The notes under the pieces are model-generated. The model was not told the DNA's origin, searched no databases, and was given only the letters and a program-made list of their open reading frames with translations. 41,317 bases of DNA from Patescibacteria group bacterium. Its GTDB lineage: Bacteria > Patescibacteriota > UBA1384 > XYA2-FULL-43-10 > 1-14-0-10-43-13. The position numbers and the translations under genes are program-made. This document shows, one piece after another, positions 13,761-16,330 of the stretch. Each line of letters opens with the position of its first letter. The stretch's first letter is position 1. Location of the stretch: positions 1 through 41,317 of the forward strand of contig JBAYVE010000011.1 in assembly GCA_041674765.1 (NCBI GenBank), given 5' to 3'.

Positions 13761-14901
13761 TTACTCTTTCATCCAAAACCAGTACTGGTTCAATAATTCT
13801 TGCTTTAATTTATAGGAATTTGCATGGGACAAGACTCCTAAAAATGAGTTCAGTGTTTGCTTCAGTTTATCTTCGTCAATCTGCCCAGCTTTATGTTTGG
13901 CTACTTTTTGTTTTAGTTTCTTGAAAATCCTGTGTTTTGTTTTTGTCCTCAATTGCCGGTGGTGTGGCAACACAACATAGCCCAAGAAATCAATTCCATG
14001 GCTAACTTTGCCAATTGATATCTTGTTTGGATGAAGGTTGAGCTTTAGACTTTCACCTAAAAACGACCGAATATCCCCAAGTGTTTGCTCAAGATAATCT
14101 TTGTTATCGGAAAGAACGATAAAATCATCAGCGTAGCGAATATAGTACTTAATCTTAAGTTTATGCTTTACAAACTGATCCAGCTCGTTCATATAAATAT
14201 TTGCAAAGAGCTGACTGGTTAAGTTGCCAATCGGAATACCATGGTTATCAGCGGCCGAAGGCCGCAATCTCTCTCTCTCTCTCTCTCTCTCTCTCGGTTG
14301 GTGCCGCAAAAAGTGAAAGTTGTGGGCACTCGGTTTTGACATAGAAACTTTGAATTATCTCAGTCAGCAGCCAGAGTAGATCTGGATCATCAACCTTTCT
14401 CTTGATGAGTTTGAGTAGTATTTCATGATCAACCGAATCGAAGAACTTCTTGATGTCACATTTTAGGGCGAAACAAGGTCTTGAATAATTTCCGCTGACC
14501 TTTCGGATAAATCCCTTTAATCGATCAACTGCCCTATGGGTACCTTTGTCTATGCGGCAAGAGAACGAGTCAAAAATAAAACCGCTATCAAATATTGGGT
14601 AAAGCACTCCGAATATTGCATGGTGAACGACTCTGTCCTTAACAGTAGCTTTATGTATATGCCTAACTTTTGGATCTGTGATAAAAAATGAGGTATATTG
14701 ATCATGATGATATTGTTTGGTGCTTAATTCATCATGCAAAGCAAAGATTTTATCTTCTAGACCGCGCTCAAATACTTGTACATCGTGTTTTCTGCGTTTA
14801 CCCAGTCTAAACTCATGCCAGCTGACAAACAAATTTTCTAAACTAACTATTCTTTTAAAGAGGTTTTCATGAATTTTCAAGATGACGCTCCGATCGTGCA
14901 A
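13761..14901 (-). pseudogene. DGR-type reverse transcriptase, reading frame broken inside a (CT)13 tract (two ORFs 14248..14901 and 13761..14342)
   Basis: The N-terminal ORF has RT motifs (FENL, DRVVHHAIF, CDIKKFFDSVDH). The C-terminal ORF has GIPIGNLTSQLFANIYMNELD (the DGR-type I/L-GxxxSQ variant of QGxxxSP) and RYADDFIV (YADD). Both translations run through RERERERE across the CT repeat. The start is TTG at 14901 or 14880. Confidence 0.85.
14269..14295. repeat. (CT)13C dinucleotide microsatellite inside the RT gene, next to a GC palindrome GCGGCCGAAGGCCGC (14251-14265)
   Basis: Counted directly. The two RT ORFs differ in frame so that +1 CT unit (or -2 units) fuses them. Confidence 0.9.
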
Positions 14902-15219
14902 AAAACATATGATTTATATAAGGGTTTTTACGAGCTGATTGATCACTTTCCCAAAAAGTCTCGGGAAGTACTTATAAATAAAATAGAGGTGCTAATTCTT
15001 GAGCTTCTGGAATTACTTTCATCAGCCGAATTTTCTCCTGCAAGCACTAAAATCCAGTCGCTGAGTCAGGCTAGTATCAAGCTTGATTTCTTAAAGCTGC
15101 TCTTCCGGATGACGTATGAATTCAAAATTATTAACCAGCCAAAATATTTGGAACTAGAAAAGCATCTCCAAGAAATTGGAAAGATGCTTGGTGGCTGGAT
15201 CAAGTCCCTTAGAGGATAA
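14869..15219 (+). CDS. avd: Avd (accessory variability determinant), four-helix-bundle DGR accessory protein
   Basis: 116 aa. N-terminal KTYDLYKGFYELIDHFPKKSR and C-terminal EIGKMLGGWIKSL match the TIGR02436/Avd pattern. RBS AAGAGG lies 7 nt upstream. Divergent from the RT and overlapping its 5' end. Confidence 0.8.
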   Translation: MNFQDDAPIVQKTYDLYKGFYELIDHFPKKSREVLINKIEVLILELLELLSSAEFSPASTKIQSLSQASIKLDFLKLLFRMTYEFKIINQPKYLELEKHLQEIGKMLGGWIKSLRG

Positions 15220-15225
15220 AGCGAT

Positions 15226-15350
15226 ACTACCACGGGACACCGAGACGGAGCCGAAGTTCGGATTGGCATTGTCGGGATTGTTGTTGTCGAGCTTCGGATC
15301 GTCGTCGTTGAGGTTCAGGTACGGAACGTTGCCGTTCTCGGTGACCGCAC
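15226..15350 (-). repeat. DGR template repeat (TR), sense on the minus strand
   Basis: 125 bp matching 15707-15831. At the mismatches this copy carries A on the minus strand, mostly in AAC codons. The 3' segment CGGCTCCGTCTCGGTGTCCCGTGG is adenine-free and identical in both copies. Confidence 0.85.
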
Positions 15351-15685
15351 AATTTTTGCTGATCTTCTTCTGTTTCTTCGGATGGTTTTAAATCAAAACA
15401 TCCTGTAGCCCGACTTCGGGCAATTTTTTAAGCGAGCGATATTATTCTCGACATAAAAATCAGCAAGGAGTATCTGCTTTATCCTTTTTCTTGACAAGCC
15501 ATAGCCGGTCAAGGAAATGCAGGGAAACAGAGATTTCTCTCGCTTAAGCCGTAGCCGAAGGCAAGGTACTCTCATATTCTAAAGAACATATTATTGGTAA
15601 AAAGAAAAGCGGCCGCTGCGAGAATTCGCAACGACCGCCTGACGGCGGGTAACCAAGGGGACAATGATCCGATAGGACCAAAGCC

Positions 15686-16330
15686 TCAAGAACCCCAGGG
15701 TAATTGACTCCCACGGGACACCGAGACGGAGCCGTAGCCCGGATTGGCATAGACGGGATTGTCGTCGTCGAGCTCCGGATCGCCGTCGCCGAGGCGCAGG
15801 TACGGAACGTTGCCGTACTCGGTGACCGCACCGGGGAAGTCCATGTAGGATTTCTGCAACTGCGGTTTGCCCCAGTAGAGGAAGGCAGTGAGGCCATCCT
15901 TGGGGATCCCGAGCTGCTCGAGCGGGTCGTGGCTGGCACGGATATCCTTGGGAGCACGGCCTTTGTATTTCTGACCGAGCTGGCCCTGCACGATGCAGAG
16001 CCCTTCCGGAGTCGTCACGCCCTCGAAGAGAGTGAAAGTATCCGGATCGGCCCAGATGTTGACGCCACCGGCCTCGCAGAGGAAGCGATCTCGTACGCCG
16101 TAGTGTACGAGCCAGACTTCATTGAGACCGATGCCGGCCAGTTCGACCGAATAGCCGAACTGCTGTACCAGGTTCATGGCGTCATCGAGGAACTTGGCCT
16201 CTTCGACGCCGACCTCTCCGTGGATGCCGTAGGCGATCAGGCAACGCGCCTGCGCTTCGAGCACTTCGGACAGGTTCACCGGCAGAGCCGGCGGAAACTG
16301 CAGAGCAGGGATCACAACCTGTGTACCCAT
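15686..16330 (-). CDS. DGR target protein with C-terminal variable region (C-type-lectin/FGE-like fold suspected)
   Basis: GC-rich ORF. Start taken at MGTQVV (AAGGAG 6 nt upstream) rather than the ORF-track 16375. The VR encodes ...EYGNVPYLRLGDGDPELDDDNPVYANPGYGSVSVSRGS at the extreme C-terminus. Confidence 0.75.
   Translation of the reverse strand: MGTQVVIPALQFPPALPVNLSEVLEAQARCLIAYGIHGEVGVEEAKFLDDAMNLVQQFGYSVELAGIGLNEVWLVHYGVRDRFLCEAGGVNIWADPDTFTLFEGVTTPEGLCIVQGQLGQKYKGRAPKDIRASHDPLEQLGIPKDGLTAFLYWGKPQLQKSYMDFPGAVTEYGNVPYLRLGDGDPELDDDNPVYANPGYGSVSVSRGSQLPWGS
15707..15831 (-). repeat. DGR variable repeat (VR) at the 3' end of the target gene
   Basis: Differs from the TR at 13 TR-adenine positions (to C/G/T), plus one non-A difference (15254/15735) and one at the repeat edge (15229/15710). 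Confidence 0.85.

Follow-up and report, generated by a model that had tools for sequence, protein, structure and literature searches.

A CPR-type diversity-generating retroelement with a frame-breaking (GA)n tract that may gate its reverse transcriptase

Introduction

Among natural protein diversifiers, diversity-generating retroelements (DGRs) are the most extreme; they are in development as directed-evolution tools, and to our knowledge the means by which cells restrain them are largely unknown. In simple-sequence-repeat (SSR) contingency loci, phase variation has been described for genes of Neisseria, Haemophilus, Campylobacter and Helicobacter, among them those encoding the mod methyltransferases. 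The element reported here is compared with these loci, with the DGRs of CPR bacteria (architecture B3, Wu et al. 2018, PMC5758913; clade 2, Roux et al. 2021, PMC8144416) and with the Bordetella phage BPP-1 element. According to the accessible parts of these two papers, the inverted orientation of avd is already known for CPR DGRs and many DGRs are inactivated (PMC5758913), and the Patescibacteria-restricted clade 2 is significantly less active than average (PMC8144416); those parts contain no mention of a microsatellite or a frame polymorphism in the reverse transcriptase (RT). Wu et al. (PMC5758913) also dropped elements with premature stops, according to the part of that paper accessible to us, so a frame polymorphism of the kind described below would have been hidden from their survey.

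Results

The locus and its comparators

The window is a 41,317-nucleotide stretch of Patescibacteria DNA, and the element at 13761-16330 within it is almost certainly a DGR of the CPR/Patescibacteria type, given the adenine bias between its template region (TR) and variable region (VR), an Avd score above the NCBIfam cut-off, an RT whose best match is bRT, and a target protein modeled with a C-type-lectin (CLec) fold. The features to which the text refers are as follows.

13761..14342, minus strand: 3' part of the RT gene, shifted to the +1 frame with respect to its 5' part, with motif 4 (IGNLTSQ), YADD and the thumb; aligns with bRT residues 175-323
14248..14901, minus strand: RT gene, 5' part, with RT motifs 1-3 (for example DIKKFFDS at 14434-14457); aligns with bRT residues 3-160
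14251..14265, minus strand: GC-rich hairpin GCGGCC-UUC-GGCCGC, beginning 2 nt past the tract, found by RNA folding
14268..14295, minus strand: (GA)14 microsatellite ((TC)14 on the plus strand), the RT frameshift point, open in all three frames, encoding (ER)n
14869..15219, plus strand: avd, 116 aa, inverted with respect to TR, RT and target; at its 5' end it overlaps the RT start in antisense
15226..15350, minus strand: TR, reading AVTENGNVPYLNLNDDDPKLDNNNPDNANPNFGSVSVSRG in the target frame, with 31 adenines, mostly in AAC/GAC codons
15469..15497, minus strand: promoter-like site TTGTCA-17-GATACT in the conserved VR-TR spacer, found by promoter scan
15607..15640, minus strand: intrinsic-terminator-like hairpin and T-run 3' of the target gene, found by terminator scan and conserved in related loci L001-L004
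15686..16330, minus strand: target (variable-protein) gene, 214 aa, with an N-terminal helical segment and a C-type-lectin-like domain
15707..15831, minus strand: VR, encoding AVTEYGNVPYLRLGDGDPELDDDNPVYANPGYGSVSVSRG, the last ~40 residues of the target
15707..15734, minus strand: IMH-like 3' end of the VR, CGGCTCCGTCTCGGTGTCCCGTGG then GAGT, where the TR has TAGT

The element resembles that of BPP-1 in the clade of its RT (E=2e-46 to 8ub7), which has IGNLTSQ where bRT has IGSLTSQ, and in having a four-helix Avd, a 125-nt TR/VR pair with adenine changes at codon positions 1 and 2, a VR at the C terminus of a CLec-fold protein, and an A-free, GC-rich IMH-like end. It differs from BPP-1 in that avd lies on the opposite strand between TR and RT, so that the RNA following the TR is antisense avd and not a free spacer, in that the target is a 214-aa stand-alone protein and no phage tail fibre, and in having a terminator between VR and TR. 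The conserved hairpin, which adjoins the IMH in BPP-1, lies here ~60 nt downstream of the A-free IMH-like segment, and the RT loop that carries the frame-breaking (GA)n has 47 residues compared with ~14 in bRT. The locus comes from a Patescibacteria MAG and, in keeping with the CPR DGRs described in the accessible parts of PMC5758913 and PMC8144416, has one target next to it and shows non-A substitutions now and then.

All 111 related loci analyzed have the element order of the window (target-VR, TR, inverted avd, RT), with a median VR-to-TR spacing of 494 nt, and sequence conservation with L001 extends over avd, TR, the IMH-like end and the spacer. A search of 13500-16800 against Rfam returned no known RNA family; a third tRNA-Gly 3' repeat copy or an att-like repeat, sought near 26.3 kb as the boundary of an integrated element, was not found; and Pfam, NCBIfam and PHROGs gave no match for a 1336-aa ORF and several neighbors, nor for the target. 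A sequence-only reading had described the element as a complete DGR, and each of the DGR parts was confirmed, whereas the RT frame is interrupted in (GA)14 as assembled and no full-length RT is present.

The TR/VR pair

A repeat search found a single 125-nt direct repeat (15226-15350 and 15707-15831, 88% identical), whose homology ends abruptly on both sides. On re-alignment the two copies differ at 15 positions in total, matching the 14 internal mismatches and one edge mismatch counted earlier, and on the minus strand 13 of the 15 fall on a TR adenine (hypergeometric p=1e-7, with 31 A in 125 nt), which upholds the adenine bias claimed from the letters. These 13 changes comprise 10 to G, 2 to T and 1 to C, and all fall on the first or second base of a codon in the target frame. 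The two non-A differences are a T to A (TR 15254, VR 15735) and a T to G at the edge (15229, 15710). Recoding of TR Asn codons had been proposed, and N is indeed replaced by Y, R, G, D, D, Y and G, but the starting residues also include Asp (D>G, V) and Lys (K>E), as well as Phe in an F>Y change that is the product of the non-A difference.

The 3' segment noted as invariant and adenine-free is confirmed as such, the final 24 nt before the edge mismatch being A-free and the same in TR and VR. The G/T difference between 15710 and 15229 is a candidate IMH/IMH* discriminator, and the same GGGAGT (VR) versus GGTAGT (TR) is found in the alignment with L001. In an alignment of 22 homologues the VR segment is hypervariable and the remaining target protein is conserved. 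The target protein itself is identical across every recovered assembly, and together with the one T>A difference in the VR this gives no direct sign of ongoing diversification at this locus.

The target protein

An AAGGAG lies 7 nt upstream of the target ATG at 16330, the longest possible ORF starting at 16375, and the VR ends 18 nt short of the stop of the 16330..15686 ORF, in agreement with the placement of the VR at the 3' end of a GC-rich minus-strand ORF. The GC contrast of target and TR with the surrounding DNA was also borne out: GC is 61% in the target gene (GC3 75%) versus 40% in the window, and the contrast holds in 92 of 94 related loci. An AF2 model built from a 78-sequence alignment (exhaustive HMMER search) is confident, with a pLDDT of 96 compared with only 50 from a 22-sequence alignment, and predicts a C-type-lectin fold like those of the DGR targets TvpA (2y3c) and Mtd (1yu0), with the VR forming the C-terminal part of the CLec-fold domain. 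Of the CLec/FGE fold suggested beforehand, the CLec fold is thus present in the predicted model, and a sequence match to FGE-sulfatase is absent, as is one to DUF1566. Foldseek of the model against the PDB gave no significant match, and the target protein has no Pfam match. Its family comprises 73 clusters, for which DUF5701 is the sole Pfam match (13 of 78 members), reached only by distant members. Compared with the CLec-fold variable proteins TvpA and Mtd, the window target is distinguished by its helical N-terminal 60 residues, and the family provides a further sequence-novel scaffold converging on the C-type-lectin fold.

In relatives, type IV secretion-like operons end with the target gene, a position that hints at a role in cell-cell contact for the target in these episymbionts.

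Avd and the predicted transcripts

The protein proposed to be Avd-like matches Pfam bAvd at 70.7 bits and NCBIfam NF033474 (DivGenRetAVD) at 88.5 bits, above the cut-off of 80, and its gene is likewise inverted in L001 and L007-L011. A terminator-like site at 15408-15421, likely that of avd, is located beyond the TR, so that the avd mRNA would be antisense to the TR. On the other strand, the promoter-like site, which belongs to a sequence block conserved in the window and L001-L003, is a candidate start for a TR transcript that would run through antisense avd into the RT gene.

The reverse transcriptase is split at a (GA)14 tract

The IGNLTSQ and YADD motifs reported for the RT are present (14211-14231 and 14124-14135), but the RT is split over two ORFs, which had been overlooked. 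Its assignment to the DGR clade is supported by sequence comparison, with bRT 8ub7 as best solved relative at E=2e-46 versus 5e-20 for group II intron RTs. The 5' part likely starts at a TTG at 14880, as called for protein P0033, and it reads through the tract to stop at TGA TAA just past the hairpin. Both halves are free of stops and all catalytic motifs are kept. The tract is located in the loop between RT motifs 3 and 4, where the 47 residues compared with ~14 in bRT make it plausible that in-frame (ER)n is tolerated, and in-frame relatives encode RERERE at this site. In the whole 41 kb, (TC)14 is the only run of at least 5 TC/GA units or of at least 6 units of the other dinucleotides tested. 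With 12 or 15 units the two halves become one RT ORF of 378-380 aa; a full-length RT therefore requires the gain of one unit, the loss of two, or recoding.

The count of 14 is found in the JGI contig and in the 94.6-kb MEGAHIT contig L242, although the two contigs may share their source reads. No other n was seen for this locus, but a break in the Logan assembly of SRR6484325 falls exactly inside the tract and hints at heterogeneity within this population. A set of 5.8 billion clustered proteins holds no full-length protein 100% identical to the window RT, only the 210-aa fragment P0033.

Two other arrangements were considered and rejected. Inspection of the region before the 3' half found no credible Shine-Dalgarno sequence or in-frame start for a split RT with separately initiated halves, and genetic code 25 is ruled out in that the 0-frame ends in TGA TAA.

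The tract across related CPR DGRs

We scanned metagenomes and species-representative genomes for (GA) runs of at least 8 units placed 20-50 nt before the PIGNLT codons. More than 230 CPR DGR loci carry the tract in this RT loop, counting at least 120 metagenome loci and 110 species-representative genomes, the latter mostly labelled Patescibacteria, with a few MAGs labelled Gammaproteobacteria, Bdellovibrionales and Actinomycetota. Its length n ranges from 8 to 35 among the scanned loci. In-frame alleles number 14 of 85 and 20 of 98 in the two datasets (16-20%; p=7e-4 and 7e-3 versus one third), so they are rarer than chance in both censuses. The class needing +2 nt (or -1 nt), to which the window belongs, accounts for 51% and 48% of alleles, and the other out-of-frame class for about 32-33% in both datasets. 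In ~160 out-of-frame loci neither RT half is interrupted by a stop: the stretch before the tract holds at least 100 open codons, and the one after it typically 137-160.

Tract length is also polymorphic between close relatives: among 25 groups whose flanks are at least 95% identical, 12 vary in n, and two flank-identical groups mix in-frame and out-of-frame alleles (n=8 versus 9, and n=9 versus 10). In 3 of 7 polymorphic groups the change in length kept the window's frame class, and near-identical alleles include pairs that preserve the class by differing in multiples of three units (17 versus 35, 15 versus 12, 24 versus 27). Several elements gave the same n from independent samples, which indicates that tract lengths are reproducible.

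The elements with an interrupted RT are not dead, to judge from their open RT halves and their clean TR/VR pairs. TR adenines account for 1675 of 1772 TR/VR mismatches overall, and non-A mismatches are alike whether the RT is in frame or not (0.91 versus 1.04 and 0.93, p=0.89).

The sequence 'GAG TAA' after the tract was considered as a mark of a specific recoding subclass and discarded, as the frame-class distribution looks alike with and without it, whatever follows the tract. A pure ON/OFF switch alone does not explain the split of ~50% versus ~32% between the out-of-frame classes, and this skew, together with the class-preserving length changes, could indicate a favored recoding route.

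In the searchable literature we found no report of the tract, nor of DGR RTs that carry a repeat, are frameshifted or vary in phase; the inverted avd of CPR DGRs, by comparison, was known before.

Discussion

That the tract recurs in hundreds of related elements, in differing lengths that mostly break the frame, suggests that it may be an on/off switch. Our preferred reading, to which we assign a probability of roughly 0.6, is that the locus is a CPR-type DGR in which a slippage-prone (GA)n gates the RT and thereby hypermutation, and that the allele in the window is RT-OFF or very low. By analogy with the Bordetella phage element, a minus-strand transcript containing the TR (15350..15226) would be reverse-transcribed by an RT-Avd complex with misincorporation opposite adenines, and the cDNA would replace the VR (15831..15707), recoding ~11 surface positions in the C-terminal 40 residues of the CLec-fold target. 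With n=14, the catalytic half bearing IGNLTSQ and YADD would be left out of frame, and slippage by one unit would toggle or dim RT production and so gate hypermutation. The simplest route would be slipped-strand mispairing when the DNA is replicated, as happens at contingency loci, and RNA polymerase or ribosomes that slip on the repeat could add to it. We infer that such switching takes place in this population and controls mutagenesis there.

The comparison with SSR contingency loci is close in that a perfect tandem repeat lies inside an ORF where gain or loss of a unit shifts the frame, relatives differ in n despite near-identical flanks, and ON and OFF alleles coexist. The tract is unlike those loci in its CPR host, in being a dinucleotide of 8-35 units that is open in three frames, and in that in-frame alleles are rarer than chance. 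It would also differ in its gated product, which from its sequence is a mutagenesis engine, so that one hypermutable site would control another. Most cells would then keep the mutator OFF and rare slippage would turn it ON, giving a two-tier contingency system. The separate elements of this proposal do not carry equal weight: that the tract is a maintained functional feature, and not junk or error, we consider quite probable, and for DNA-level phase variation as the main mode we see about an even chance.

The alternative that best survives is programmed recoding, in which the out-of-frame allele would give a constitutive low level of RT and the tract would act as a dimmer, not a switch, either because the ribosome slips -2 (equivalent to +1) on (GA)n, helped by the downstream hairpin or the 0-frame stop, or because RNA polymerase adds one GA unit. 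On inspection, both tRNAs could re-pair perfectly two bases back on (GA)n, and many 'GTAAA' members read GAG TAA right after the tract, where a -2 slip enters the PIGNLT frame. The window's frame class is the commonest in two independent censuses, and some near-identical alleles differ by multiples of three units and stay in the same out-of-frame class. A GC-rich hairpin after the tract, 2 nt away in the window, is moreover far commoner than in control windows: across 194 loci the post-tract spacer has a GC of 53% versus 39% in controls and a mean MFE of -5.8 versus -2.1 and -2.5 kcal/mol (p=1e-18), and a hairpin of -5 kcal/mol or better occurs in 49% of loci versus 14-15% of controls. The reading frame of the hairpin varies among family members (AAFG or RPSAA). 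A dedicated recoding signal would normally fix one frame relationship, whereas all three frame classes coexist here, close relatives change class, and the class distribution looks independent of the post-tract sequence; nor did the searchable literature yield a precedent for -2 frameshifting or dinucleotide transcriptional slippage in DGRs. We therefore regard recoding as unlikely, and as less so than the explanations that follow.

A sequencing or assembly artefact, with a true allele that is in frame (for example n=15) and a DGR that is simply complete, appears quite improbable. Dinucleotide runs are prone to stutter, PCR stutter that loses one unit from an in-frame allele would yield the window's class, and the break of the Logan assembly within the tract implies that the reads there are not uniform. 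Against this, the JGI and MEGAHIT contigs agree on n=14, the protein clusters hold no identical full-length RT, other elements give the same n from independent samples, a 28-nt run is well inside Illumina read length, and a proportion of ~80% out of frame in metagenome and genome sets alike is too systematic for random error.

Decay of the DGR, with an RT made a pseudogene by a chance frameshift and a TR/VR pair that is a fossil of earlier activity, would agree with the broken RT, the one non-adenine TR/VR difference, the target identical in all recovered assemblies and the many inactivated DGRs reported in the accessible part of Wu et al. (PMC5758913), but it is highly improbable given stop-free RT halves with every catalytic motif, a break exactly in a tract that more than 230 loci share at this site, with a downstream half that is open there too, non-A TR/VR fidelity equal to that of in-frame elements, and conservation of avd, TR, the IMH-like end and the spacer with L001.

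Returning to the gating of the RT by slippage, the low in-frame fraction fits the below-average activity of clade 2 described in the accessible part of Roux et al. (PMC8144416), and is also in line with Wu et al. (PMC5758913). If the reading is true, it would explain the low apparent activity of CPR DGRs and why many have been discarded as 'inactivated', surveys that discard RTs with premature stops would systematically under-count functional CPR DGRs, and engineered mutators could borrow the tract as a portable stochastic switch. The wider proposition, for which we hold the odds to be level, is that a large CPR DGR clade carries a built-in (GA)n switch or dimmer, with hypermutation itself phase-variable or held at a slippage-fed trickle. 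Hundreds to thousands of Patescibacteria DGRs would then share a regulatory principle that is simple and can be tested.

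The DGR and its divided RT gene

The element at 13761-16330 is a diversity-generating retroelement, as the sequence-only reading had proposed. It is of CPR type, and the order target-VR, TR, inverted avd and RT is common to the window and every related CPR DGR locus. That reading had also called the element complete, which did not hold: the RT is not one ORF but two, put out of frame by a microsatellite that is both conserved and hypervariable.

Features of the DGR in the window (hairpins and promoter-like site from a promoter/terminator scan)
14901..14248 and 14342..13761, minus strand: RT, as two ORFs in different frames, each with an RVT_1 match
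14268-14295: (TC)14 run, (GA)14 on the coding strand, in the overlap of the two RT ORFs
14869-15219, plus strand: avd (Pfam bAvd 70.7 bits; NCBIfam DivGenRetAVD 88.5 bits)
15226-15350: TR
15408-15421: terminator-like hairpin beyond TR, likely that of avd
15469-15497: promoter-like site in the VR-TR spacer
15607-15640: terminator-like hairpin after the target
15686-16330, minus strand: target gene (214 aa), with the VR at 15707-15831

When the two halves are joined, the nearest solved RT is that of Bordetella (bRT, structure 8ub7, E=2e-46), with group II intron RTs far behind (5e-20). The alignment to bRT consists of two blocks, between which residues 172-218 are skipped; this loop has 47 residues here compared with ~14 in bRT. 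The ORFs part at the (GA)14 tract, which is the sole run of at least five TC or GA units in the 41-kb window, where no other dinucleotide tested reaches six units. Rebuilding the gene with 11-17 units gives a single ORF (~380 aa) only at 12 or 15. A GC hairpin, GCGGCC-UUC-GGCCGC, begins 2 nt 3' of the tract, and the upstream frame reads through it into TGA TAA. A 94.6-kb contig (L242), which matches the window exactly over 9.4 kb, also has n=14, and the Logan assembly of SRR6484325 is broken precisely within the tract, between the end of one contig (L007) and the start of another (L243). No full-length protein identical to the window RT was found in a collection of 5.8 billion protein clusters, which returned only a 210-aa fragment (P0033).

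The tract across related loci

The related locus L001, whose target is 76% identical to that of the window, has (GA)17 and the hairpin at the same RT site, and several in-frame relatives carry RERERE there (P0025, P0026, P0027, P0031 and P0091); RTs of this clade typically have 349 aa and no insert. A scan for (GA)8 followed after 20-50 nt by PIGNLT codons recovered at least 120 metagenomic loci and, in the genome scan, 110 species-representative genomes. The genome labels are mostly Patescibacteria lineages, including Wolfe-, Berkel- and Saccharibacteria, Paceibacterota, and Doudna-, Lloyd-, Uhr- and Yanofskybacteria, with a few MAGs labelled Gammaproteobacteria, Bdellovibrionales or Actinomycetota. 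Among the matches listed, tracts span 8-35 units, and n differs within 12 of 25 groups with near-identical flanks (≥95%). Two such groups mix in-frame and out-of-frame alleles: L013, L039 and L120 (n=8) with L029 (n=9), and L163 (n=9) with L045 (n=10). In five loci (L038, L067, L102, L121 and L164) a (TC)n run directly precedes (GA)n, and the two form a perfect palindrome that could fold into a long hairpin or cruciform.

Since (GA)n contains no stop in any frame, the frame depends on the flanks alone. The census was limited to genes in which the tract is preceded by at least 100 open codons and followed by at least 60.

Frame of tract-bearing RT genes (window's class: +2 nt needed to rejoin the halves)
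Metagenomes, de-duplicated, among the matches listed: in frame 14; window's class 43; other class 28; chi-square p=6e-4
Genomes: in frame 20; window's class 47; other class 31; chi-square p=0.0035

About 80% of these genes are thus out of frame, which is above chance in both censuses (the metagenomic one among the matches listed), and both halves of the out-of-frame genes are still open. The out-of-frame classes are unequal, with ~50% in the +2-nt class and ~32% in the -2-nt class, consistently in both datasets (metagenomes among the matches listed), and several length changes between near-identical alleles retain the +2-nt class. A bias in slippage, selection for a frame that can be recoded, or stutter could underlie this excess.

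In a pseudogenised RT, TR and VR would be expected to drift apart and stops to build up in the 3' half. Neither was found in the out-of-frame loci, and the frameshifted elements are therefore not decayed. TR/VR pairs were recovered in 111 tract loci among the matches listed, all with an identical layout (VR ~494 nt upstream of TR, and TR ~950 nt upstream of the tract), and 1675 of their 1772 mismatches (94.5%) lie at TR adenines. Non-adenine mismatches per pair average 0.91 in in-frame loci and 1.04 and 0.93 in the out-of-frame classes (p=0.89).

Hairpins are also enriched downstream of the tract. The post-tract spacer has 53% GC compared with 39% in equal-length control windows, and a mean MFE of -5.8 kcal/mol compared with -2.1 and -2.5 in controls (p=1e-18). 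Different members read it in different frames, as AAFG or RPSAA, which points to conservation at the nucleotide rather than the protein level.

TR/VR pair, avd and flanking signals

A repeat search of 12-19 kb found a single long direct repeat, of 125 nt and 88% identity, and re-alignment with 30-nt flanks showed that the homology stops abruptly at either end. The coordinates and mismatch counts reported earlier were correct, as was the adenine-specific signature: 13 of 15 mismatches, read on the minus strand, change a TR adenine to G (10), T (2) or C (1) (hypergeometric p=1e-7, with 31 A in 125 nt), all 13 at the first or second codon position when read in the frame of the target. The TR translates as AVTENGNVPYLNLNDDDPKLDNNNPDNANPNFGSVSVSRG and the VR as AVTEYGNVPYLRLGDGDPELDDDNPVYANPGYGSVSVSRG; some recoded residues start as Asn, as had been described, but others start as Asp or Lys. 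The two remaining mismatches are T>A (15254/15735) and, at the repeat edge, T>G (15229/15710). The latter recurs in L001 (VR GGGAGT, TR GGTAGT), and it is therefore a candidate IMH/IMH* discriminator.

The Avd-like assignment was borne out by a DivGenRetAVD score above the cut-off of 80 bits, though the gene lies on the plus strand, a correction to the earlier description. Its coding strand continues through the antisense of TR to the hairpin at 15408-15421 (15219-15431). Because this likely terminator lies beyond TR, the avd mRNA would be antisense to TR and fully complementary to the TR transcript over TR, and the TR transcript would extend via antisense avd into the RT gene. The VR-TR spacer is strongly conserved between the window and L001, and Rfam returned no known RNA family across the DGR region.

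Target gene and relatives

The whole target gene, beyond the VR alone, is GC-rich (61% GC and 75% GC3, compared with 40% GC in the window), as are the targets of 92 of 94 related CPR DGR loci (L008-L241), whatever their family (means of 57% GC in the target compared with 44% in the rest of the locus; target GC3 70%). In relatives (L001-L006 and L008) the target homologue closes a type IV secretion-like operon that encodes TrbC/T4SS pilin, PrgI, a TraC-like protein, a VirB4-like ATPase and an M23 peptidase, and this position directly downstream suggests that the variable protein acts together with an apparatus for secretion or conjugation. No such neighbourhood surrounds the window copy.

In L004 and L005 the target homologue P0009 has kept both a C-terminus resembling a VR and the conserved hairpin/terminator that follows the VR, with no TR, avd or RT after it, so that it is an orphan target or is served in trans. 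The 1007-aa protein P0190 joins an N-terminal Ser/Thr kinase domain to a C-terminal target-family domain (869-1004), so that the scaffold is also used as a sensor-like module.

Genomic setting

The window is chromosomal Patescibacteria DNA, and the DGR lies within a phage-like stretch (12315-26500).

Features around the DGR
0.4-6.6 kb: transporter genes
11978-12052: tRNA-Gly, with partial duplications
12315-13673: serine recombinase
17447-19006: terminase large subunit
phage-like stretch: DUF4352/zinc-ribbon membrane protein
phage-like stretch: HTH protein
phage-like stretch: ParB-N6/N4 methylase
phage-like stretch: 1336-aa ORF, no family match
phage-like stretch: HNH gene
26.5-27.2 kb: three tRNAs

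No capsid, portal or tail genes were recognisable in 12315-26500. The 5' part of tRNA-Gly (11985-12012) has an exact copy at 11921-11948 and the 3' part (12021-12052) one at 12084-12115; these look like integration scars beside the serine recombinase. No matching repeat was found when the opposite side of the phage-like region was searched, and the ends of the stretch were not located. Upstream of tRNA-Gly, an HTH + SocA/Panacea antitoxin-like gene (8253-8993) adjoins a 135-aa ORF with no family match, and the two may be a toxin-antitoxin pair.

Interpretation

The simplest reading is that the tract acts as a contingency-type switch, in which replication slippage would alter n by one unit and each such change would flip RT production ON or OFF, with OFF the commoner state. 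Recoding is kept alive, whether by ribosomes slipping -2 with tRNAs that re-pair perfectly or by RNA polymerase adding one GA: it would fit the excess of the class needing +2 nt and the enrichment of hairpins downstream of the tract, but offers no account of why all three frame classes coexist. An artefact of assembly is improbable, since other elements show identical n in independent samples and tract lengths are therefore reproducible.

The searchable literature yielded no account of DGR RTs with a repeat, a frameshift or phase variation. The DGR itself is of known type, and the novelty lies in its RT tract, which is worth experimental follow-up. A switch biased toward OFF would agree with the below-average activity reported for the Patescibacteria-restricted DGR clade 2 (PMC8144416).
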